A stretch of DNA of 22,822 nucleotides from a virus (taxonomy: Duplodnaviria; Heunggongvirae; Uroviricota; Caudoviricetes): IMG/VR virus record IMGVR_UViG_2645727821_000016. The stretch is one strand, 5' to 3'. The notes under the pieces were generated by a model. That model searched no databases. It was not told where the DNA came from and worked only from the letters and a program-made list of their open reading frames with translations. The position numbers were made by a program, and so were the translations under genes. Below, piece after piece: positions 2,160 through 18,020 of this stretch (position 1 is the first letter of the stretch; each line of letters begins with the position of its first letter).

Positions 2160-4631
2160 TTAAAAATCAGCCTGACTCGGGATCAGTTTTTGCCAGATAG
2201 CTGAAACGTATTTTGCTTGGTAACGGGCGTCATCAAGTGCATTATGGCGCTCACCTTCGAATGGAATAGCCGTTCTGGCATCGAAGTCAATGGCTTTCCC
2301 CAGCTCGACGATTGTGCGTACATCGCGATCGTTGTAGTAACGCCACGGGCAGGGGATCCCCTGCCGTTCGTATGAACGGCGCAAAATCGTGTTGTCGAAG
2401 TTGGCTCCATTTCCCCAGACCTGAACAAAAAATTCACCGGAGTTTTCGTCGATAAATTCCCGCAATTGTAACAGTGCATCATCTAACGGGATTTCATCGG
2501 TCATAATGGCAGATTGCGCTTCGCGTGATTGCTTAAGCCACCGTTTAATGGTGCCCCGATCAATGACTCCGCCAGCAGTTTCCAGATCGATAGTCTTACT
2601 AAATTCCGGTCCCATATCTCCGGTTTGCGGGTCGAAAAATATTGCACCTATTGAGATGATCGGGGCATCAGGATTTTTTCCCATGGTTTCAAGGTCGATC
2701 ATTAGATGGTCACACGTCCTGCTGGTGGATGTGTCTTTTTGATGACCATGCACCTTAATTAAGGAATTTGTCGTCCTGCCAGTTTTATCACCGCTATCGT
2801 TATGCTGATAGTTGTCAGCATCTTCCGGATGCGGATGTCCAGGGCTTTCCATCTCCTCCGGAGCTTTTTCCTGAGATTCATCTGAATCTTCCTCGCAGAA
2901 TGTCTCATGGTAAGTTGCGTCACCCATTACTGAGCCACAGTCAGGGCATGTGCCCCCGCCAGTTTCCCCACAAACATTACAGGGATTTTTCTGTGTATGT
3001 TGCGCTGCTGGCTCCGGATGTATCGTTTTTGGTTCATTTTGGTGTGCGTCCTGGCTATTTTGTCCCGATTCTGGCCTGGTTTGTTCCGCTTCTGGTTGAT
3101 TCTGGTTCGAAGACTCGCGAGTCTGGATCCCCTTGACCCATTTCGGATCATTAGGGTCGCTAATCCCCTCAACAAATTCACCACGCGATACAGCAAGTAA
3201 CTTATCGGCGTCAGGCTGGCTGATATTGGCTGCCTGCATAATTTTGTTTACTTCGTCAGCGGTAACTTTTACCGGCCCTGGTTGTGCGGTCGTGTCAGAT
3301 GCACCAGTATTTTGTTGTGAACCTGAGTATGTACCGTTTTTGCGGGCGAAATATTCTTCTTTCGTGATTTCAGTAGCCCCAGCAGCCAGTGCCTTATCCA
3401 GACCAGAAAGTTTGTTTGCGCGACCGTATTTTTCGCCATCCTTGTCGGTGAAGAGGAAGTAGAACGGCCCCTCACGCTCTACAGATGGTTCGACTTCCAC
3501 TTTACATTCGGTTTTTTCGTTGTCCTGAATTGCCGTTTCCACTGCATCAGTTTCTGGTACTGGCGACGAGAGAGTATCAGTTGCGCTCTGATTTCTTCCT
3601 TCATCTTCAAACACGCCCTTTGTAGTCAGGTATTCAGTAATGTATTTGTTCAGTGCCACAGGGGCTTTGTGAATGTCGATCGGACGTTCACGGACAAGGC
3701 CAAAAATAGTCTGGCGATCGTAGCGAAGGGCATCAGGCTGTTTGCGCATTGATGCTGAGATACGCTTCCAGTCTTCGCGGTCGTTGTCGATAACTTCATT
3801 TTTTGCCCAGCGATGGATGCTGCCGTCAATGTTTCCGGCATCCACATCACCTGGCCAGAGAGCGTAGGCCAGTTCGTCATCCAGTGTTTTCCATGTCTGC
3901 TTGTATTCGCGATGAGTGGCAGCAATGACCGGGTTGATTTTTCCTGTTGAATTATCAGTGTTCTGTTGATTGGCTCTGGCGCGGGCGAGATCAACAACAG
4001 ACGTGTATTTTCCGGTTTCCTTGCGTTCACCTTCGCGACGTTTTTTCCAGATGCGCATCTCTGCCTGAATTTCGGGCCATTTAGCACCAGGAATACATTT
4101 ATGCTTAACCCACCCGATGGCATGCAGCTTAAGCTCCGGATACATAGCGTTAACTTCTGGCATTTTCATCAACGCTTCAACGATATGTCCGTCGAATGTT
4201 GCCATGTCTTCCTGCAACAATTCCTGCGCGCTAATCACCATATCAACGGTGATGTTTTCACATGTGTCGAACTTAACCATGACAGCGTTCTGTACTTCAG
4301 GGGCCAGCTTGTCAAAAGTGACGTTCATCGGATCTGATTCAGTCTCAACCGGGACAAAGGAAGCAGACTCCTCATCCCAGCGGTTTTCCTGCATATATTC
4401 AGCATCCCAGGAATCGAGGGCAGGGCGGGGTATACCGGGTTTATCCTCGCAAACAAGAAATTTATAAGCGCAGTCCTGAGCAGCCGGATAATGTTCCAGG
4501 AATTGCCAGTGAAATTTTGCGCGGGCGCGACGTTCATCACCGGCTTCAATGGCAGTGGCTACAGCGACTGCACCTTCTTCCTTTATTGCCTGTTCGTCCG
4601 GAATGGCGGCGCAAATAAAGACTTTACTCAT
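2160..4631 (-). CDS. Prophage exonuclease VIII (RecE)-like protein with internal Cys4 zinc ribbon and C-terminal DnaQ-like (DEDDh) 3'-5' exonuclease domain
   Basis: 823-aa ORF with a GAGGT Shine-Dalgarno upstream of ATG 4631. A central segment (DADKLLAVSRGEFVEGISDPNDPKWVKGIQTR) matches my recollection of a RecE segment. Zinc-ribbon motif CNVCGETGGGTCPDCG. The C-terminus carries DEDDh motifs: DLETMG (Exo I), VWGNGANFD (Exo II) and HNALDDARY (Exo III, H-x4-D). Confidence 0.85.
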   Translation of the reverse strand: MSKVFICAAIPDEQAIKEEGAVAVATAIEAGDERRARAKFHWQFLEHYPAAQDCAYKFLVCEDKPGIPRPALDSWDAEYMQENRWDEESASFVPVETESDPMNVTFDKLAPEVQNAVMVKFDTCENITVDMVISAQELLQEDMATFDGHIVEALMKMPEVNAMYPELKLHAIGWVKHKCIPGAKWPEIQAEMRIWKKRREGERKETGKYTSVVDLARARANQQNTDNSTGKINPVIAATHREYKQTWKTLDDELAYALWPGDVDAGNIDGSIHRWAKNEVIDNDREDWKRISASMRKQPDALRYDRQTIFGLVRERPIDIHKAPVALNKYITEYLTTKGVFEDEGRNQSATDTLSSPVPETDAVETAIQDNEKTECKVEVEPSVEREGPFYFLFTDKDGEKYGRANKLSGLDKALAAGATEITKEEYFARKNGTYSGSQQNTGASDTTAQPGPVKVTADEVNKIMQAANISQPDADKLLAVSRGEFVEGISDPNDPKWVKGIQTRESSNQNQPEAEQTRPESGQNSQDAHQNEPKTIHPEPAAQHTQKNPCNVCGETGGGTCPDCGSVMGDATYHETFCEEDSDESQEKAPEEMESPGHPHPEDADNYQHNDSGDKTGRTTNSLIKVHGHQKDTSTSRTCDHLMIDLETMGKNPDAPIISIGAIFFDPQTGDMGPEFSKTIDLETAGGVIDRGTIKRWLKQSREAQSAIMTDEIPLDDALLQLREFIDENSGEFFVQVWGNGANFDNTILRRSYERQGIPCPWRYYNDRDVRTIVELGKAIDFDARTAIPFEGERHNALDDARYQAKYVSAIWQKLIPSQADF

Positions 4632-5100: not shown

Positions 5101-5665
5101 TATCGCGTCCTCAACAATGAATTTTGTGATGCGGTGCCTGGTGCTTCCAGGTGACGTTAACCAGTTAACAATTAACGCCGGATACAGAGAATCCACCCAT
5201 AACACTGTTTTTGGTTTTAACTGTTCCGCGTGCGCTTAGCCGCATTCACCGCATCACAAAATTCACTTTAAAAAGGGCGGCAGAGCAGTCACGGAGTAAA
5301 ACTGATACCGCCAAACGTCACCAGAAAATTGATAACAGAGGGCGTTGCAGCGGGGTTGTCACTTAAGCGTATGGTCAACCTGACAACCCGGTGTCCTCAA
5401 CGGTGGAAGGAATAACCCCGCCATACTTACCGCCGCGCCATTTCGCGGATTGCCACAACCGGAAGCGCACGGTCGACGAAAATTTAACGACAGGCTATCT
5501 ATGAACCAGCTACCTCGCCGTGCGCTTTCGCGTTATGGTCTGACTTTTCAGGGAAATATCCTTTCAGTAAACTGTCAGTGCCGGATGCTCACCCGTGTCC
5601 GGCGCACGCACTCCACCTCACCCGTGGAGAACTCCTTAATTACCAACCTTAGCTTCGTTGGTTAG

Positions 5666-6494: not shown

Positions 6495-7133
6495 TTAAAT
6501 ATTTTGTTGAATTTTAAAGCATACGCCCAATATGCAAGATAGATCATCCAGCATAATTGAAGGGTAGCGAGGATTCGTGGGGACTAAAAGAATATCCGGC
6601 CCTTCTATCTCCAGTTTACGAATGACAGGTGTTGTGGTCCCTTTGGGTAAGGCAAGGACAATATTTCCTGGTTGTACGGTTCGATCGGGATCAACAAAAA
6701 CTGTTGAACCATTTGGGATGGAAACTCCCCCACCAGATGTTGACATACTGTCACTCTCTAGAACAACTGCAAAGGTATTGGCCGGGATTTCTCCGACAAG
6801 CTGCACACAAGAGGTTATTGAGGAATTTTTCATATAATCACTCCAGCTTGCTGCCTGCTGAAGTGATAGTAGCGGAACCGTTTTTATCGGCGGTAAAGAT
6901 AGATCAAGCGAATCACCTGTATTTAACTCTCCTCCATTAAGAAGCCAATTTTCGTTTACTTTCAATATTTTTGCCAGTGAACTTATGTAACGCGAGGACG
7001 GCGCTCCTCCACCGTTCATCCATTGACTTACGGAGCCTTTTGATGCGCCAGTGGCATTGACAAGGTCTTTGCCTTTCAGGTTTAGCGCATGCATACGTTG
7101 GGTTATGCGTTCAGATATTGTTTGCTTGTTCAT
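6495..7133 (-). CDS. CI-type prophage repressor (XRE-family HTH plus LexA-like S24 autopeptidase domain)
   Basis: 212-aa ORF. The N-terminus has an HTH-like segment (LKGKDLVNATGASKGSVSQWMNG). The C-terminus has S24-like elements (ESDSMS serine context, downstream VIRKLE lysine). It is divergent from the cro-like gene, and no strong Shine-Dalgarno is visible, so it may be leaderless like lambda cI. Confidence 0.88.
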   Translation of the reverse strand: MNKQTISERITQRMHALNLKGKDLVNATGASKGSVSQWMNGGGAPSSRYISSLAKILKVNENWLLNGGELNTGDSLDLSLPPIKTVPLLSLQQAASWSDYMKNSSITSCVQLVGEIPANTFAVVLESDSMSTSGGGVSIPNGSTVFVDPDRTVQPGNIVLALPKGTTTPVIRKLEIEGPDILLVPTNPRYPSIMLDDLSCILGVCFKIQQNI

Positions 7134-7224
7134 GTTTTGATTTTAAAACACAGATGGTTTTGTTTCTTGACTTTCTTTGGTTTTGATTATTAAACTTTTG
7201 GCGTTCAGTTTTATGGAGCGACTC
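7134..7224. promoter_or_regulatory. Immunity-region divergent promoter/operator segment between repressor and cro-like gene
   Basis: 91-bp AT-rich gap containing a rightward TTGACT at 7166-7171 with TATTAA/TTAAAC -10 candidates 15-17 bp downstream, plus repeated ggttttg/ttttgatt motifs that could be operator half-sites. Confidence 0.5.
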
Positions 7225-7467
7225 ATGAAAAAATCAGAAGTATTAGGCTATTTTGGCGGAGTTGTTAAAACAGCCGCAGCTCTAGGAACGTCAAAAACCA
7301 CAGTCAGCATGTGGGGGGAAGAGGTTCCGTGGAAATGGGCGTTGCTAATTCAGGCAGTCACTGCCGGGGCGCTCAAATATGAGTTACACATACCGACGGT
7401 TGTCATTCCCGGTTCTGATCATAATCCGCCTTCTAACCAAGGGGGGATTCATGAAAATCAAGCATGA
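7225..7467 (+). CDS. Cro-like HTH regulator (YdaS family)
   Basis: ATG at 7225 with GGAG 7 nt upstream. The product MKKSEVLGYFGGVVKTAAALGTSKTTVSMWGE... has a Cro/CI-type HTH and sits divergent from the repressor. It resembles Rac YdaS by recall. Confidence 0.75.
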   Translation: MKKSEVLGYFGGVVKTAAALGTSKTTVSMWGEEVPWKWALLIQAVTAGALKYELHIPTVVIPGSDHNPPSNQGGIHENQA

Positions 7468-7876
7468 ACACATCCGCATGGCGATGAATGCCTGGGCGCG
7501 TCCTGATGGCGAAAAAGTTCCGGCAGCTGGAATAACCCAGGCTTATTTTGAGTTGGGTATGACGTTTCCTGAACTGTACGACGACAGCCATCCGGAAGCC
7601 CTGGCTCGCAATACCCAGAAAATTTTCCGCTGGATAGAGAAAGACACCCCTGATGCAGTTGAAAAAATTCAGGCGTTGTTACCAGCGATCGAAAAGGCAA
7701 TGCCACCTTTGCTGGTGGCCAGAATGCGCAGCCACAGTTCAGCTTATTTTCGGGAGCTGGTGGAGACGCGGGAGCGACTGGTGAGAGACGCTGATGATTT
7801 TGTCGCAGTGGCAATCGCCGGTTTCAATCAGATGAACCGTGGTGGCCCGGCAGGAAATGCTGTGGCAGTACATTGA
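7451..7876 (+). CDS. YdaT-like protein (occupies the CII position)
   Basis: ATG at 7451 preceded by AAGGGGGG; the product begins MKIKHEHIRMAMNAW..., and I recall Rac YdaT beginning MKIKHEH. It overlaps the cro-like gene by 17 nt. Confidence 0.65.
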   Translation: MKIKHEHIRMAMNAWARPDGEKVPAAGITQAYFELGMTFPELYDDSHPEALARNTQKIFRWIEKDTPDAVEKIQALLPAIEKAMPPLLVARMRSHSSAYFRELVETRERLVRDADDFVAVAIAGFNQMNRGGPAGNAVAVH

Positions 7877-7947
7877 CTGACAATAGCCATATCGAATCGC
7901 TTCCGGCAACTCGTGAGTAAAAAGATTCGGTATCAGAAGAGGTGAGT

Positions 7948-9018
7948 ATGGCTAACGCCTGGCTCAGATTATGGCATGACATGCCAAATGACCCTAAGTG
8001 GCGAACAATTGCCAGGGTGTCAGGGCAGCCAATTGCAACAGTGATGGCAGTGTATATCCACCTCCTGGTGAGCGCGTCACGAAATGTCACGCGAGGTCAC
8101 ATTGATGTCACGACAGAAGATTTGGCAAGTGCGCTCGACGTGACAGAAGAGGTAATTGATTCAATTTTGCAGACGATGCAGGGGCGGGTACTTGATGGTG
8201 ATTTAATCACTGGATGGGAAAAACGCCAGGTGCTTAAAGAGGACAACGGCAATATTTCGCAAACCGCAAAATCTCCTGCAGAGCGCAAGAGGGCGCAGCG
8301 AGAGAGGGAAAGAAAGCGGGAACAAAATGGCGATTGTCACGGCGCGTCACGAAATGTCACGCACATGTCACGACGAGTCACGACAGATAAAGATACAGAT
8401 AAAGATACAGATCAAGAAGATCAAAACACTATGGTCCATGGCGTAAAAAACGCCACGAACCAGGCAGGGGATGTTCAGACCGTCAATCTTGGTCAGCCAG
8501 CAGGCACGACACCGGAAGCCGATTCAGCGTATGCGCTGAAAGCCGATTCGGGCGCTGTGCAGCAGGTGATGACCGCAAGGCCGGAGCAATCACACCAACT
8601 GCAGCAGCCCGAAGCCGATTCCGCCATTCAGCGGGAAGCCGATCGGGTAGTCCCGGAAAACACCGGGCAGTCTGTGGGACGAGTGGATTATCCGGATGTG
8701 TTCGAACAGGTCTGGCGGGAGTACCCGTTGCGTGCTGGGGCAAACCCGAAGAAATCCGCTTTCAGTGCCTGGAAGGCCAGATTACGCGAGGGGGTGCCAC
8801 CAGAGGCCATGCTGGATGGCGTGAGGCGTTACGCAAGATACTTGGCGGCTACCGGGAAAACGGGAACGGAATTTGTTCAGCGAGCGACGACGTTTTTTGG
8901 ACCGGACCGGAATTTTGAGAACCCCTGGTTGCTCCCGGTAAGCGGCACGAACAACCAGCGTTGTGTGAATCATATTTCTGAACCGGATAACGAAATTCCG
9001 CCGGGCTTCAGGGGGTAA
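7948..9018 (+). CDS. Replication initiation protein (lambda O-like organisation, with internal origin iterons)
   Basis: ATG at 7948 with GAGGTGAG upstream. The position after the cro/cII-like genes fits a replication initiator, and the gene contains two clusters of helically phased GTCAC(G) repeats followed by an AT-rich tandem tract, the lambda O/ori arrangement. Confidence 0.7.
   Translation: MANAWLRLWHDMPNDPKWRTIARVSGQPIATVMAVYIHLLVSASRNVTRGHIDVTTEDLASALDVTEEVIDSILQTMQGRVLDGDLITGWEKRQVLKEDNGNISQTAKSPAERKRAQRERERKREQNGDCHGASRNVTHMSRRVTTDKDTDKDTDQEDQNTMVHGVKNATNQAGDVQTVNLGQPAGTTPEADSAYALKADSGAVQQVMTARPEQSHQLQQPEADSAIQREADRVVPENTGQSVGRVDYPDVFEQVWREYPLRAGANPKKSAFSAWKARLREGVPPEAMLDGVRRYARYLAATGKTGTEFVQRATTFFGPDRNFENPWLLPVSGTNNQRCVNHISEPDNEIPPGFRG
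8076..8112. repeat. Iteron-like cluster 1 (4 x GTCAC at about 10-bp phasing)
   Basis: GTCAC at 8076, 8086, 8096 and 8107; an inverted copy cgtgac at 8138-8143. Confidence 0.55.
8336..8425. repeat. Candidate origin of replication: iteron cluster 2 (5 x GTCAC at 10-11 bp phasing) plus AT-rich tandem gataaagataca repeat
   Basis: GTCAC at 8336, 8346, 8356, 8367 and 8377, immediately followed by gataaagatacagataaagatacagatcaagaagatcaaaaca. The 20-mer cgcgtcacgaaatgtcacgc occurs in both clusters. Confidence 0.6.
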
Positions 9019-9058
9019 GTGTTAATTTCTGGTCATGAGGTAATTTTCAGGAGGGCTT

Positions 9059-9481
9059 GTGGCAAAAGTTTTTACACAAGAAGAGCGGGAAAAAATTAAA
9101 GGACAGGTTGTTGAACTCGTACGCCAGAGTGGGCGTGAGACGTTACGGCAACTGGAAGTCAAGACAGGTGCGACAAGATATCTGATGAGCGTTCTCGCAA
9201 GAGAGCTGGTTGCCAGCGGCGATGTATGCAACTCTGGTTACGGGTTATTCCCGTCTGAACAGGCGCGTAAGGACTGGCAAAATGCCCGTAAAAAGCTCTC
9301 AAGGGCAAAGCTGAAGAAACCATCTGCGGTTGATCCGGACCTTATCTGGTCATTACCTGACGGAGAAATACGTCGCTACGACAGGCGTCAGAACATAATC
9401 TGTCGCGAGTGCCGGAAGAGTGAAGTTATGCAGCGCATATTGTCGTTTTATCAGGGTGATGTTCGGTATTTATTGAAGTGA
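9059..9481 (+). CDS. Hypothetical protein (replication-module associated)
   Basis: 140-aa ORF starting at GTG 9059 with AGGAGGG 3-5 nt upstream; basic; no recognisable motif. It occupies the slot where lambdoid phages carry a helicase loader but is too short to be one. Confidence 0.5.
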   Translation: MAKVFTQEEREKIKGQVVELVRQSGRETLRQLEVKTGATRYLMSVLARELVASGDVCNSGYGLFPSEQARKDWQNARKKLSRAKLKKPSAVDPDLIWSLPDGEIRRYDRRQNIICRECRKSEVMQRILSFYQGDVRYLLK

Positions 9482-9607
9482 CGAGATTAAAGTGCATTAG
9501 TTCAGATGCAAATTGACATTTTGTGGCACAGGGTAGAGCTAGCGTGGTTGTCCGCTTTGTGCCAATAGCGGACATTGCTGGCTCATGGTATGTTAGTTTA
9601 AGGAGGC

Positions 9608-9639
9608 AGGTTATGCTCTGTATTTCGCTGTGGTATAAT
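9608..9639 (+). promoter_or_regulatory. Candidate promoter with extended -10 (TGgTATAAT) for the AT-rich cassette
   Basis: tggtataat at 9631-9639 is a perfect TATAAT with an upstream TG; a weak -35-like TTATGC lies 17 bp upstream. If the ATG at 9613 is the true start, this element would be intragenic. Confidence 0.35.
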
Positions 9640-10635
9640 AGTTGCGCAATTGATACAAGGGAGCGTTACATCGTGAAAATTGTTTTCGAGGTTAATGGAA
9701 AGAAAGTTCCACTAAAATCTTTAAAATACATAAGCAAAAAAGATCAACTCGAAGTAATGAAAAACTGGTTCTTTGAAAACTTTGAAGATCCGGCAAATGC
9801 TTGTCCGTATGAAAGTAGAGAAGGTGGCTATGCTTACATATATGGCGGGCCGTATGATGCGAGCGAAGAACTACAATCCATCTTCGGTCAATATGTTAAA
9901 TCTGAGTATATTGAGGAATTAGTAGATGAATTACAAACACAATGTTTTGACTGGTCTGGAAACTCAAATAATATAGATGATTGGTACGATGATGATATCT
10001 ACGACGCTGTAACGTCTTCCGGTAATCCGTATTTAAAATTCATTGATAATATCGATAAAATAAAAAAACTTGCAAAAGATAAAACTGAACAACAGCAAAA
10101 AAACCACTTGCTTAGTTTGCTCTACACGAATGTTATTACAGCTTTGGAAACGCTTTATGTTGAGCTATTCATTAATTCTATAGAGAAAGATGATGTCTAC
10201 ATAGCCAATTGTATAGAAAAAGGTAAGACTGAATTTAAAGTAAGCAAAGATATTGCTGCGTTGCCTTTCAAGGGTGAACCCATCGAGAAAATTAGGGGAG
10301 AGCTAATCAGGTCAATCAAGGAACACTTGATCAGTGCAAGCTGGCATAGCACTAAAAAGGTAATCGACCGCTATGAAGCTACATTCGATATAAAAGTACA
10401 AAAAGACTGTCCGATAGAAGCTATTGAATTGGCAACCCTCAATCGAAATCACTTAGTGCATCGTGGTGGAAAGGATAAAGAAGGGAACCTCGTAGTGATT
10501 ACAGACCAGGATCTTGAAACGCTGATTGAAAATGCATCGAACCTGGCAATTATGCTCTACAACAGTTTAAATGTAGCAACGAATAAAACCACCATTTTGC
10601 AACCAGATGACAAACCGTTCATTCATGAATTTTAA
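9613..10635 (+). CDS. AT-rich cassette gene A: hypothetical protein with no assignable function (candidate defence/abortive-infection component)
   Basis: Long ORF with strongly AT-biased codon usage, unlike its neighbours. Start is ambiguous: ATG 9613 with AGGAGG 6 nt upstream, or GTG 9673 with AAGGGAG 9 nt upstream, or the track's 9523. A single R-x4-H (RNHLVH) lies near the C-terminus. Confidence 0.7.
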   Translation: MLCISLWYNSCAIDTRERYIVKIVFEVNGKKVPLKSLKYISKKDQLEVMKNWFFENFEDPANACPYESREGGYAYIYGGPYDASEELQSIFGQYVKSEYIEELVDELQTQCFDWSGNSNNIDDWYDDDIYDAVTSSGNPYLKFIDNIDKIKKLAKDKTEQQQKNHLLSLLYTNVITALETLYVELFINSIEKDDVYIANCIEKGKTEFKVSKDIAALPFKGEPIEKIRGELIRSIKEHLISASWHSTKKVIDRYEATFDIKVQKDCPIEAIELATLNRNHLVHRGGKDKEGNLVVITDQDLETLIENASNLAIMLYNSLNVATNKTTILQPDDKPFIHEF

Positions 10636-10650
10636 TAGCGCAGGTCATAC

Positions 10651-11652
10651 ATGGATATTCGCACACGAAAGACAAAATTTTTAGAGTCGTTAGATTCAAC
10701 TGAAGTGATACGCAAAGCAGTAAGTCTCGCTATAGATTGCATTATTGATAATCATAATAGTAATGAAGATACCCCCTTAGTTATTACCAGCTATGATGAT
10801 CTCTGTAGAATCCAGGTGCTAAATTATGTACAGGAGTTTTGCGAAGCTGCATTCCCTGATATGGATGAATATTACTTTAGTCCTAACATACTTCGCATCA
10901 ACGGCAAGACTAGTGAAGAAGCTTGTATTAACTTAATTAAACTCTTAAGAAGTACAAAAGGCATGCTATTCTGGTCCGATGCCCCATCGTGGTTCGCTAG
11001 CCTCCCCGACGGATTATTCCATGTTGTTAACATTGATCAAAAAATCGTTACTCGCGGCCTTAATAAGAAAAACTCTAAGCCGACAATAATCAATAAAGAT
11101 TACAGTGTAGATACACTACTATCAGAGCTATTTTTGAATGGCGCACACATGGAGCAACCCAACGTACACAACGTTTCTGAGGGAAACATGAAGTTCTATG
11201 ATGAATGCCATGCTGGATTAATCAGACCAATACCCGCTCCAATAGGCGCGTCATACGATGAAGAGATCACAATTAATTCTCCAGATTGGCAAAAGCTCGC
11301 GTGTGTAGCTTTACGCCGCTATCAGTCGAAGGAATGTCATGACGGAATGCAATGGGATACAACCGATCATGGTTGGACTGATGTAATCGCGTATCCATTC
11401 GTCGAAGAAATACAATCAATGGATAATAGTGGTTATCGACAATGTTTAGTTGGGCTGGTCACAATAAACAATTCAAATGCAAATTCTCCGTACCTATCTA
11501 CCGTTTGGATACATCCATTTTATCGCAGGAGAGGGTTATTAAGTAAGTTATGGCCAAAATTACAAGAGTTATATGGAAGTAACTTCGAAATTGAGCGACC
11601 TAATGAAAATATGAAAGCATTTCTGAAAAGTGCGAAACACGCAGATTACTAA
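10651..11652 (+). CDS. AT-rich cassette gene B: hypothetical protein with C-terminal GNAT-like (acetyltransferase motif A-like) segment
   Basis: 333-aa ORF, 15 bp downstream of gene A, on the same strand with the same AT-rich composition. The C-terminus reads ...CLVGLVTINNSN...YLSTVWIHPFYRRRGLLSKLWPKL, resembling the GNAT beta4-alpha3 acetyl-CoA-binding loop. Confidence 0.8.
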   Translation: MDIRTRKTKFLESLDSTEVIRKAVSLAIDCIIDNHNSNEDTPLVITSYDDLCRIQVLNYVQEFCEAAFPDMDEYYFSPNILRINGKTSEEACINLIKLLRSTKGMLFWSDAPSWFASLPDGLFHVVNIDQKIVTRGLNKKNSKPTIINKDYSVDTLLSELFLNGAHMEQPNVHNVSEGNMKFYDECHAGLIRPIPAPIGASYDEEITINSPDWQKLACVALRRYQSKECHDGMQWDTTDHGWTDVIAYPFVEEIQSMDNSGYRQCLVGLVTINNSNANSPYLSTVWIHPFYRRRGLLSKLWPKLQELYGSNFEIERPNENMKAFLKSAKHADY

Positions 11653-12059: not shown

Positions 12060-12269
12060 TTTATATTGGCGAGGTGACGGGAGTTAAGTAGAATTGCTGC
12101 GGGTGCTTGAGGCTATCTGCCTCAGGCATGAACACCAAAGGCAGATAGAGAAAAGCCCCAGTTAATATTACGCGTCCTGCAAGACGCTTAACATTAATCT
12201 GAGGCTCAATCTATGAACGGCAAATCTAGGTTAGCCTCTTACGTGCCGAAAGGCAAGGAGAAGCAGGCT
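12060..12269 (+). promoter_or_regulatory. hok mRNA leader region (probable location of antisense Sok-type RNA and an upstream overlapping frame)
   Basis: Structured leader upstream of hok: hairpin tgagg-ctatctg-cctca and a complementary aaaggcagatagag segment. The 5' segment gaggtgacggg (12071-12081) is partly complementary to the hairpin flank ccctcgccacctc (12447-12459) downstream of hok, fbi/tac-like. An in-frame upstream start at 12213 extends the frame to 70 codons. Confidence 0.35.
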
Positions 12270-12425
12270 ATGAAGCAGCAAAAGGCGATGTTAATCGCCC
12301 TGATCGTCATCTGTTTAACCGTCATAGTGACGGCACTGGTAACGAGGAAAGACCTCTGCGAGGTACGAATCCGAACCGGCCAGACGGAGGTCGCTGTCTT
12401 CACAGTTTACGAACCTGAGGAGTAA
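12270..12425 (+). CDS. hok: Hok/Gef-family type I toxin (HokD/RelF-like), 51 aa
   Basis: ATG at 12270 with AAGGAG at 12255-12260. The product MKQQKAMLIALIVICLTVIVTALVTRKDLCEVRIRTGQTEVAVFTVYEPEE has the single transmembrane helix and conserved Cys/Glu tail of Hok-family toxins. Confidence 0.85.
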   Translation: MKQQKAMLIALIVICLTVIVTALVTRKDLCEVRIRTGQTEVAVFTVYEPEE

Positions 12426-16795: not shown

Positions 16796-16871
16796 GGCCC
16801 TTTAGCTCAGTGGTGAGAGCGAGCGACTCATAATCGCCAGGTCGCTGGTTCAAATCCAGCAAGGGCCACCA
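16796..16871 (+). tRNA. tRNA-Ile (anticodon CAU, ileX/ileZ-like; tRNA-Met not formally excluded)
   Basis: 76-nt cloverleaf: acceptor GGCCCTT/AAGGGCC, D-arm GCTCAGTGGTGAGAGC, anticodon loop CTCATAA, T-loop GGTTCAAATCC, 3' ACCA. Close to E. coli tRNA-Ile2 by recall. Confidence 0.85.
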
Positions 16872-16878
16872 TCACATA

Positions 16879-16955
16879 CCGCCATTAGCTCATCAGGAAA
16901 GAGCGCCAGCCTTCGAAGCTGGTTGCGCGGAGTTCGGGTCCCCGAAGGCGGTCCA
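16879..16955 (+). tRNA. tRNA-Arg (anticodon UCG), somewhat degenerate (argN-like)
   Basis: Acceptor CCGCCAT/AAGGCGG with one mismatch; anticodon stem-loop CCAGC-CTTCGAA-GCTGG; T-loop GTTCGGGTCC with one mismatch in the T-stem; ends in CCA. Confidence 0.6.
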
Positions 16956-16968
16956 TTATCTGTATCCT

Positions 16969-17045
16969 GCGTTGTTAGCTCAGCCGGACAGAGCAATTGC
17001 CTTCTAAGCAATCGGTCACTGGTTCGAATCCAGTACAACGCGCCA
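16969..17045 (+). tRNA. tRNA-Arg (anticodon UCU, argO/argU-like)
   Basis: Acceptor GCGTTGT/ACAACGC; D-arm TAGCTCAGCCGGACAGAGC; anticodon stem-loop ATTGC-CTTCTAA-GCAAT; T-arm ACTGG-TTCGAAT-CCAGT; 3' GCCA. Confidence 0.85.
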
Positions 17046-17090: not shown

Positions 17091-17306
17091 CTCACAATTC
17101 AGGCGGTTGACTGTTGTCTGGTTTGCGGGGAGTTTGTTAAAAGAAACTGGCATGGTGAATCCCCCTGTGCGGAGGGGCAATCAGCGAGTAGGTATATGGG
17201 ATAATCGCGGATTCAGGTGCTGGTACTGAATTCACCGGGAGGCACCCGGCACCATGCAATGGCACATAGCGCCACTCTCCAGCCCCTCTCCGGAGGGGCT
17301 TTTCTG
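17091..17306 (+). repeat. Structured noncoding unit, copy 1 (promoter-like TTGACT, nested hairpins, terminator): candidate small RNA or attenuator
   Basis: Blocks shared with copy 2: ctcacaattcag, ttgac, tttgttaaaa, catggtgaatccccctgNgcggaggggc, caccgggaggcacccggcaccatg, and agcccctctccggagggg followed by a T-tract (terminator hairpin at 17281-17306). Confidence 0.5.
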
Positions 17307-17493
17307 TGCCGGATACATCACAGTTTCTGGAACCTTAGGTACTACAGTATCAGTCAGGGTGCTATATTTTCAGATGTGATGAAAGCCTGTCAGCAGGCAG
17401 GGCGTATCGGAAATGACCCAGTAGAGAAAACGTTGACTCAGATACCGGTGCTGAGTTACCGGGAAACCGGCATCACATGACCGCTATCCTTCC

Positions 17494-17521
17494 AGGCCCA
17501 TCCGCTCCGGTGGGCCTTTTT
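17494..17521 (+). terminator. Rho-independent terminator between the two repeat units
   Basis: ggcccatccg-ctc-cggtgggcc followed by ttttt. Confidence 0.5.
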
Positions 17522-17558
17522 ACTGCAGAAAACAGGTTCCCCGTTAAATGCTATGTTG

Positions 17559-17792
17559 CTCACAATTCAGTAAGTTGACAGTTGCCTGTCAGACTGGGCA
17601 TTTGTTAAAAAAATTTCGCATGGTGAATCCCCCTGAGCGGAGGGGCGACTGGTGACGGTATAATCTCTGATTATCAAAACGAGAATGACGCGGGTTTAGT
17701 GGCACCGGGCTGAACTCACCGGGAGGCACCCGGCACCATGTGCATGATGATACAGATACGCGGCTTTAGCCCCTCTCCGGAGGGGTTTTCTT
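17559..17792 (+). repeat. Structured noncoding unit, copy 2 (TTGACA, TATAAT, nested hairpins, terminator)
   Basis: Same conserved blocks as copy 1 in the same order; TTGACA at 17575-17580; TATAAT at 17659-17664; terminator gcccctctccggagggg plus ttttctt at 17768-17792; another hairpin gcccgcg...cgcgggc at about 17807-17829. Confidence 0.5.
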
Positions 17793-18020
17793 GTGGGCAA
17801 AAAAAGCCCGCGCTGGGAGACGCGGGCGGCAAGGAATAAACAATAAAACGTGAAGTAATATTTCAGCTGGCGAATAATACCCCATAGTAATCACTCTGCG
17901 CAACTGCGCGGTCTTTTTCGAATTGCGGGCTGTCGTCTCTCTTCTGCCATTGTCCTGTAACTTCCGGACTTCAGCCCGCTCCTTATTTTACTCACAATAT
18001 TATCCCGGCCGGGAGGATTC

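Follow-up and report, generated by a model that had tools for sequence, protein, structure and literature searches.

A putative replication origin within the replisome-organizer gene of a lambda-like prophage, with a second iteron array in the same gene

Positions 8336–8462 of the window (the whole 22,822-nt stretch of DNA analysed here) are very probably the replication origin of a lambda-like prophage, situated inside the linker-coding part of the gene for its own initiator. A preliminary description of this DNA had read phased iterons running into an AT-rich tract as an origin inside the initiator gene, and comparison across homologous loci lends that reading strong support. Our data further suggest that a second array of the same iteron word, upstream in the same gene, is a functional site for the organizer protein itself, a reading that we consider probable on the strength of its conservation. 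The anatomy of these elements, their conservation, selection on them at the DNA level and their covariation with the protein are established by the data presented below.

Iterons, AT-rich tract and hairpin within the organizer gene

The window is a lambda-like E. coli or Shigella prophage with 97–100% identity to phages Tritos, Evi and others. Its genes are ordered as follows:

Start of the listed gene order, ahead of CI: integrase, exonuclease and DicF
6495–7133, minus strand: CI
7177–7467: Cro
7379–7876: YdaT/CII-like gene
7948–9018, plus strand: the repeat-bearing open reading frame, a replisome-organizer (initiator) gene of 356 aa
9059–9481: DUF977/Ren-like gene, the next gene after the organizer
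After the DUF977/Ren-like gene: cargo genes, Q and lysis genes

No helicase-loader gene was found in the window: the gene that follows the organizer is DUF977 (Ren-like), and the subsequent open reading frames are not loaders. A P gene is present in an O157 variant whose organizer has a DnaT-like C-domain.

The following elements were located within the organizer gene:

8076–8112, plus strand: cluster 1, the upstream array of iterons, whose four GTCAC(G) cores are direct and start at 8076, 8086, 8096 and 8107
8139–8145, minus strand: inverted single iteron TGTCACG, 33 bp downstream of cluster 1
8275–8325, plus strand: codons of a basic helix (aa 110–126, PAERKRAQRERERKREQ), the candidate iteron-reading element
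8336–8382, plus strand: cluster 2, the main array of iterons, whose five GTCACG cores are direct and start at 8336, 8346, 8356, 8367 and 8377
8383–8431, plus strand: AT-rich tract, purine-rich on the coding strand, a candidate DNA unwinding element
8432–8462, no strand: imperfect palindrome or hairpin that immediately follows the AT-rich tract, TGGTCCATGGCGT AAAAA ACGCCACGAACCA
8974–9015, plus strand: DnaT-like C-terminal tail, ISEPDNEIPPGFRG, common to the host primosomal protein DnaT

Around the basic helix and the tail, three further regions of the protein were predicted:

aa 1–97: winged-helix N-domain
aa 128–244: disordered linker
aa 245–325: helical C-domain

The nine GTCAC copies lie on the plus strand exactly where the preliminary description had placed them and at the 10–11 bp spacing it gave (10, 10 and 11 bp in cluster 1; 10, 10, 11 and 10 bp in cluster 2), and Tandem Repeats Finder picks up a 10-bp array at 8335–8385. 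Across the whole window GTCAC shows no enrichment (41 copies found versus 37.6 expected); 10 of these 41 copies are clustered within 8076–8381. The longest chain of any 5-mer at 10–11 bp spacing has five members and is cluster 2, the second has four and is cluster 1, and the maximum reached in 300 first-order Markov simulations was three; other 5-mers in the real window form chains of two at most. The conserved core is 6 bp long (GTCACG) and direct; among 136 close pairs, the spacing is 10 bp in 98 and 11 bp in 27. A 20-bp block (cgcgtcacgaaatgtcacgc) had been reported as duplicated at a distance of about 260 bp; the duplication is real (8073–8092 and 8343–8362), though the measured distance is 270 bp. 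The two copies are thus 90 codons apart, so that both encode ASRNVT. Cluster 1 codes for the loop at aa 43–55 (ASRNVTRGHIDVT), between helix 3 and the helix-turn-helix, and cluster 2 codes for the start of the disordered linker, both of which are protein regions tolerant of imposed sequence.

Repeats within a gene might reflect only the protein they encode, through a repeated peptide motif or codon usage with no role at the DNA level. VT dipeptides do recur (NVT, DVT, RVT), as expected of such a coding artefact, but the nine cores occupy all three reading frames (offsets from the ATG of 128, 138, 148, 159, 388, 398, 408, 419 and 429), and their 10–11 bp period is not a multiple of 3. Synonymous sites are also conserved, and AT-rich codons are retained in GC-rich hosts. 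The reading-frame analysis effectively refutes this explanation, to which we assign a negligible probability.

As described earlier, the second cluster runs straight into an AT-rich tandem repeat, (ACAGATAAAGAT) × 2.9 at 8383–8417, and the tract also contains two GATC sites (8410–8413 and 8419–8422). GC content is down to 0.34 at 8375–8449. The 40-bp segment starting at 8386 (8386–8425) has the least stable duplex of the region 7100–9500 and ranks among the least stable 0.5% of the whole window. The hairpin that follows (8432–8462), folded as DNA, has a free energy of -8.7 kcal/mol (z = -3.1 versus shuffles). The combination of iterons and AT-rich tract originally proposed therefore stands, and this hairpin is the part that it lacked, so that the module extends to 8462. 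Homology with O157 variants that bear a different C-domain stops inside the AT-rich tract, which suggests a module joint at the origin; lambdoid O genes likewise have a module joint at the origin.

Searches for other signals in the region gave little. There is no consensus DnaA box at or near the origin module, the sole exact match in the window being at 9070; the one-mismatch boxes nearest the origin, at 8165 and 8215, lie between the two arrays, and the total count of such boxes is at chance level. A promoter and terminator scan returned only a weak promoter-like match on the minus strand, made by the iterons themselves and occurring at chance frequency. No third iteron cluster (an oriR-like site) was found elsewhere in the window.

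The initiator protein and its homologous loci

Along its entire length, the 356-aa product matches phrog_3729 (‘replication initiation protein’), and the NCBI name for the protein is ‘phage replisome organizer’. Its match to Pfam PF09681 (Phage_rep_org_N) spans model positions 1–119 of 121 at 16.6 bits, below the gathering threshold of 23.3 (E = 0.008). BLASTP against the phiEf11 organizer gave an E-value of 9e-10, and a profile–profile comparison (hhalign) with the organizers of phiEf11, phi11 and SM1 gave a probability of 95.5% (E = 1.6e-8). These similarities point to a remote PF09681 phage replisome organizer, with an N-domain predicted to fold as a winged helix of the DnaD N-terminal type. 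At the other end of the protein, the last 14 residues (ISEPDNEIPPGFRG) match positions 156–179 of 179 in the DnaT family NCBIfam NF002770 (E = 7e-4) and align with the tails of the DnaT structures 6aep, 2ru8 and 9zbt.

The gene had been called ‘O-like’, which is apt for its position and role; the implied membership in the lambda O family did not hold, as the protein appears to be a remote PF09681 member and has no similarity to O. It has no PF04492 match, and its BLASTP alignment with lambda O (E = 0.085) is confined to the low-complexity linker, whereas lambda O itself matched PF04492 with an E-value of 5.7e-36 in the identical Pfam scan. TP901-1 ORF13 and 80alpha ORF20 were also considered as homologs and rejected: they are alike in architecture, share no sequence similarity with the window protein and belong to other families. 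Sequence records mostly list organizer genes of this family under ‘hypothetical protein’ or under the loose name ‘protein O’, and an origin is annotated in none of the family records examined.

A scan of one genome per species yielded 80 loci with N-domain identities of 35–99%. After truncated genes were left out, the scan loci, the window and four phage loci made up the 76 loci analysed. GTCAC occurs at matching gene offsets (128, 138, 148, 159 and ~386–430) in about 25 species, including members of Escherichia, Aquitalea, Entomomonas, Rahnella, Serratia and Bordetella as well as of Pseudomonas, Gilvimarinus, Acidovorax, Castellaniella and Chromobacterium. More distant members of the family have GAACGC, GTAACG, GCAACG or GTGACG as their iteron word instead of GTCACG. 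A downstream array of the lineage’s own word, at the offset of the main array, is present at 65 of the 76 loci, drawn from many proteobacterial genera, and an identical 5-mer is found in both arrays at 51 of the 76. Across the family, the iteron word has changed on several occasions.

The tract beside the main array is conserved in the same manner. In the 45 nt past the last downstream iteron, mean GC content is 0.36 versus 0.57 gene-wide (lower in 64 of 65 loci) and the mean purine fraction is 0.73. Both the tract and its junction with the array (yAGATAAAGATAAAGA, CAGATACAGATAC, AGAGAAGAGAAG) are kept even in hosts with a GC content of 0.67, and many homologs have a hairpin in the matching place, right after the AT/purine tract. 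The pattern extends to the Firmicutes phages phiEf11, phi11 and SM1, in which three to five GTAACG cores, 10–12 bp apart, are followed by a purine/AT tract at gene offsets 397–445. An iteron array and AT/purine tract just after the basic-helix codons are thus found in the window, in these three phages and at 65 of the 76 loci.

The upstream array and the reading of the iterons

The upstream duplication of the 20-bp block had been called unusual. Our comparison shows instead a second array conserved across the family, with a word that changes together with that of the main array. Among GTCACG-type genes (21 non-redundant genes aligning without indels), the entropy at third codon positions is 0.17 bit within the four cores versus 1.39 bit outside (P = 1.8e-5), and in the GAACGC-type group it is 0.06 versus 1.21 bit (P = 2.9e-5). 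Since these synonymous sites are nearly invariant, the upstream array is kept at the DNA level, beyond the needs of the encoded peptide. Part of its conservation nevertheless stems from that peptide. At 23 of 43 loci (1.3 expected), an inverted core is found no more than 60 nt downstream of cluster 1; the conserved peptide DVT partly explains this excess.

It is conceivable, though unlikely, that only 8336–8462 is functional and that the upstream array is a relic of an in-frame duplication, kept for the N-domain peptide ASRNVTRGH.DVT. Consistent with a relic, the 20-bp blocks share a reading frame and code for one and the same peptide, the peptide is conserved in GTCACG-type homologs, and the upstream array is missing from the Firmicutes members and from about a quarter of the proteobacterial members; the array is thus not essential for the family. 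Selection for the peptide does not, however, account for third positions that are frozen inside the cores only, nor for the fact that a change of iteron word alters the upstream array and its peptide too (NVTRGH to NATERGRT, among others). The loop itself tolerates insertions: E. coli variants carry 7-residue insertions there that add exactly two further iterons, and because such an insertion is 21 nt, or two periods, the reading frame is kept. A hybrid gene (L122) that has undergone a change of specificity, described below, also argues against a relic, as it has no upstream iterons.

Which part of the organizer might read the iterons was addressed by an association test over the first 130 alignment positions of 60 homologs. 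The columns most strongly associated with iteron type were 117 (z = 20.9) and 114 (z = 16.7), both in the basic helix, and they outranked the loop positions that are encoded by the iterons themselves. Each pair of residues at 114 and 117 maps to one iteron type only among the 60 homologs, as shown here without five pairs that occur in one sequence each (A,Y; G,H; G,F; T,H; A,H):

Residues 114,117 = K,Q: iteron GTCACG, 24 of 24
Residues 114,117 = A/S/K,W: iteron GAACGC, 21 of 21
Residues 114,117 = V,F/Y: iteron GTAACG, 4 of 4
Residues 114,117 = S,H/R: iteron GCAACG, 4 of 4
Residues 114,117 = T,Y: iteron GTGACG, 2 of 2

When homologs are instead paired with their nearest neighbour by winged-helix core sequence, iteron type matches in only 46 of 60. 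The hybrid L122 illustrates the difference: its winged-helix core is 86% identical to that of a GAACGC-type gene, yet its basic helix is of the K,Q kind and its main array consists of GTCACG iterons; all iterons of the upstream array have been lost. The Firmicutes members with GTAACG iterons have an aromatic residue or His before RE(K). These correlations point to the basic helix as the iteron reader. The helix codons are only ~40 nt from the main array, however, so physical linkage is a competing or partial explanation for the covariation at 114 and 117.

We tentatively propose, with somewhat less than even confidence, that a single basic helix (aa 110–126), rather than the recognition helix of the winged helix, reads the iterons, that residues 114 and 117 set the word, and that repeated switches rewrote both arrays. 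The code may then be K,Q for GTCACG, A/S/K,W for GAACGC, V,F/Y for GTAACG, S,H for GCAACG and T,Y for GTGACG, with residues 114 and 117 on one helix face and the upstream array spanning all three frames of the N-domain. An interpretation of the iteron words as bZIP half-sites was dropped, as the helix, inspected by eye, is without the signature Asn of bZIP proteins.

The same covariation bears on whether the arrays are bound by some other protein or serve another DNA transaction, with a repressor, Cro, the CII-like regulator, terminase and packaging, or a host factor as candidates. Phased short repeats are typical also of packaging sites and of some operator arrays, and the arrays in the window resemble these to that extent. 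However, the arrays always accompany this N-domain, while flanking regulators and C-domains vary among loci, and the iteron word follows two residues of the organizer itself. The neighbouring tract of unwinding type and the hairpin fit an origin, and a consensus DnaA box is absent nearby, the exact match at 9070 being the only one. We consider a different binder or function very improbable.

Proposed initiation, wider meaning and known systems

From this organization we infer binding, melting and helicase recruitment by the organizer. Upon induction, transcription from the early rightward promoter would lead to synthesis of the replisome organizer. Its N-terminal winged helix and basic helix would bind the five-iteron array along a single face of the DNA, contacting one short GTCACG core at each helical turn. 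The resulting nucleoprotein complex could strain and melt the adjacent purine-rich AT tract (8383–8431), and the C-terminal domain and DnaT-like tail might then recruit the host DnaB/DnaC machinery, the window being without a loader gene of its own. The upstream array (8076–8112, with the inverted copy at 8140) would provide a second set of organizer sites, most likely auxiliary and looping to the main array. Its effect could be to stimulate initiation or, alternatively, to restrain it through titration or handcuffing, or by blocking the gene’s transcription.

The open-access literature searched holds no description of the origin of the proteobacterial branch of this organizer family, though a prior mention is possible; nor does it describe the short, one-turn-spaced iterons of that branch, a covarying second array in the N-domain coding region or the two-residue correlation at 114 and 117. 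The upstream array thus appears to be both conserved and undescribed. Of 5426 complete E. coli genomes, 2078 carry the replication module, O157:H7 among them, and homologs are found in prophages of many further genera, such as Pseudomonas, Bordetella and Serratia. If our interpretation is correct, it identifies the origin of a large prophage class and what probably determines its specificity, and the iteron word would predict incompatibility or cross-activation between co-resident prophages. The initiator and origin would form a compact, re-targetable pair, and a clean natural case of a protein coevolving with binding sites written in its own coding sequence. Should the basic helix in fact read the iterons, the origin specificity of a very common prophage group would be predictable from sequence and could be re-programmed.

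The likeness to lambda ori (NC_001416) drawn in the preliminary description is borne out at the level of layout, since iterons, AT tract and palindrome are arranged as in the window. In both, the iterons lie in the linker-coding middle of the gene (offsets 348–432 in O versus 388–434 here) and are followed by an AT tract that is purine-rich on one strand and then by a palindrome. The setting is also shared: both genes are transcribed from the early rightward promoter, follow cro and a gene of the cII type, and have a Ren-like gene downstream. The differences are substantial, however. Lambda O (PF04492) has no sequence similarity to the window protein, and lambda has four annotated 18-bp iterons about two turns apart, each a dyad bound by an O dimer, whereas the window has direct cores of 6–7 bp, one turn apart. 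Lambda also lacks a second array in the N-domain coding region and has the loader gene P, for which the window has no counterpart.

Two arrays of one initiator-binding word near or around the initiator gene are found in P1 (incC/incA), F (ori2/incC) and P4 (ori/crr). Looping, handcuffing or a cis-acting enhancer can be modelled on these bipartite systems, by analogy only: their initiators are different, their iterons longer and their arrays intergenic. In P1- and F-type replicons the iterons measure 17–22 bp, the origin contains host DnaA boxes and a second array exerts negative control, in contrast to the 6–7 bp cores of the window and its origin with no consensus box.

Phages of Gram-positive hosts provide further parallels in architecture. 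To our knowledge, no second array is known for the origins of TP901-1, Tuc2009 and 80alpha. The 80alpha record has a rep_origin annotated inside the ORF20 gene, and repeats, an AT-rich tract and a hairpin are visible mid-gene, as in the window; ORF20 carries PF09524 and has no sequence similarity to phi11 ORF15 or to the window protein. Embedding of the origin in this gene has been reported for 80alpha (PMC5499656), and TP901-1 ORF13 and Tuc2009 Rep2009 bind repeats, or have an origin, within their own genes (PMC8965321). The repeats of TP901-1 and 80alpha are longer than those described here. In SPP1, G38P binds direct repeats beside an AT-rich unwinding element in its own gene (oriL, gene 38), and a second set of repeats is located at oriR, elsewhere in the genome (PMC6316719). 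The window resembles SPP1 at the level of layout, with repeats and an AT-rich element in the organizer gene and a second set of the same repeats, but oriR lies at a distance of ~13 kb and comes with an AT-rich region of its own, whereas the second array here is 229 bp upstream, in the same gene, and has no AT tract. For related organizer families, both repeat binding by the organizer and replication supported by the origin fragment are documented (PMC6316719, PMC8965321, PMC5499656). Given the embedded origins documented for SPP1, TP901-1, Tuc2009 and 80alpha, the placement of an origin within an initiator gene is an architecture already known.

Probable remote relatives are the PF09681 organizers of Firmicutes phages (phi11 ORF15, SM1 gp19 and phiEf11 ORF47), whose iterons we did not find described in the open-access literature searched. 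These differ from the window in having no upstream array, a DnaB_2/DnaD-like C-domain and a DnaC-like loader or helicase gene after the organizer. Their N-domain and basic helix are homologous to those of the window protein by BLASTP and hhalign, and their module of iterons and purine/AT tract lies at the same offset in the gene.

Iteron copy number and internal length variants of the organizer gene

Iteron number varies within E. coli: the replisome-organizer locus of O157 carries 6 + 5 copies (upstream array, cluster 1, plus main array) versus 4 + 5 in the window. Among the E. coli variants, cluster 1 changes in 21-nt steps, each equal to seven codons and two iterons. The features concerned are:

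L166 (homologous locus, E. coli O157:H7) 3009-4052, with organizer proteins P0003, P0022, P0069 and P0101: iteron copy-number variants
8512-8547 and 8608-8643: 36-nt direct repeat, copies 96 bp apart, in the linker-coding region and encoding PEADSA motifs

In the 324-aa E. coli organizer variants, the missing interval comprises exactly the 32 residues between the 36-nt repeats, as expected from recombination between them. A natural in-frame variant (P0019, 302 aa), found on four contigs, one of them a complete genome, has lost the AT tract and the hairpin together with the greater part of the main array (compared with window 8350-8511). A locus of this type is possibly that of a replication-dead prophage.

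Possible structured elements flanking the array and AT tract

Several distant homologs carry a hairpin 3' of the AT tract in which the loop is conserved, encoding SLRS, while the stems vary. This loop is absent from the window's own hairpin. A 13-nt inverted repeat in the window has one arm by the end of the cII-like gene and the other at the left edge of the main array.

L088, L096, L104, L149, L155, L159 and L163 (homologous loci), about 20-60 nt past the purine tract: hairpin with conserved loop, about TCnCTWCGnTC
7878-7890 / 8327-8339: inverted repeat TGACAATAGCCAT / ATGGCGATTGTCA, 12/13 complementary

A loop kept constant on changing stems points to a specific structured DNA element in these distant homologs, which might act as a signal for priming or loading. 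The inverted repeat may be due to chance.

Genes and RNAs around the replication module

No helicase or helicase-loader gene was found 3' of the organizer (9059-11652); the gene directly behind it is only a DUF977/Ren-like one. Elsewhere, what follows an organizer homolog is a gene for a DnaB-like helicase, a lambda P-like gene, an unannotated gene of 1.8 kb or a small one that carries the annotation 'replicative helicase'.

9523-10635 and 10651-11652: two ORFs of low GC content, with the replication module on one side and the hok/sok region on the other
524-722, 5275-5326, 12101-12275, 16796-17042 and 17121-17798: Rfam-matched RNAs, whole set

Of the two low-GC ORFs, one matched HEPN/RES N-terminal domain 1 weakly and below threshold, and the other had a weak match to GNAT; PADLOC matched neither. 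A cargo or defence role is possible for both. The Rfam matches comprised C4 antisense RNA with its a1/b1 targets, isrK, DicF, sok, three tRNAs and two copies of the sRNA STnc100.

A probable mosaic joint and a DnaT-like tail

Variants of the O157:H7 type share the N-domain and origin of the window, followed by a DnaT-like C-domain and then a lambda P-like gene, and their nucleotide identity to the window stops within the AT tract (window about 8405-8418). Since identity ends there and the C-domain is swapped, the candidate origin appears to be a mosaic joint between a specificity module and a helicase-recruitment module.

8974-9015: DnaT-like tail ISEPDNEIPPGFRG, C-terminal end of the organizer

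The tail motif PPGF[RK]G is retained in organizer homologs whose C-domains are unrelated. The tail differs little from the one at the C-terminus of DnaT, the host primosomal protein, and could serve to recruit the host helicase or else to oligomerise the organizer.
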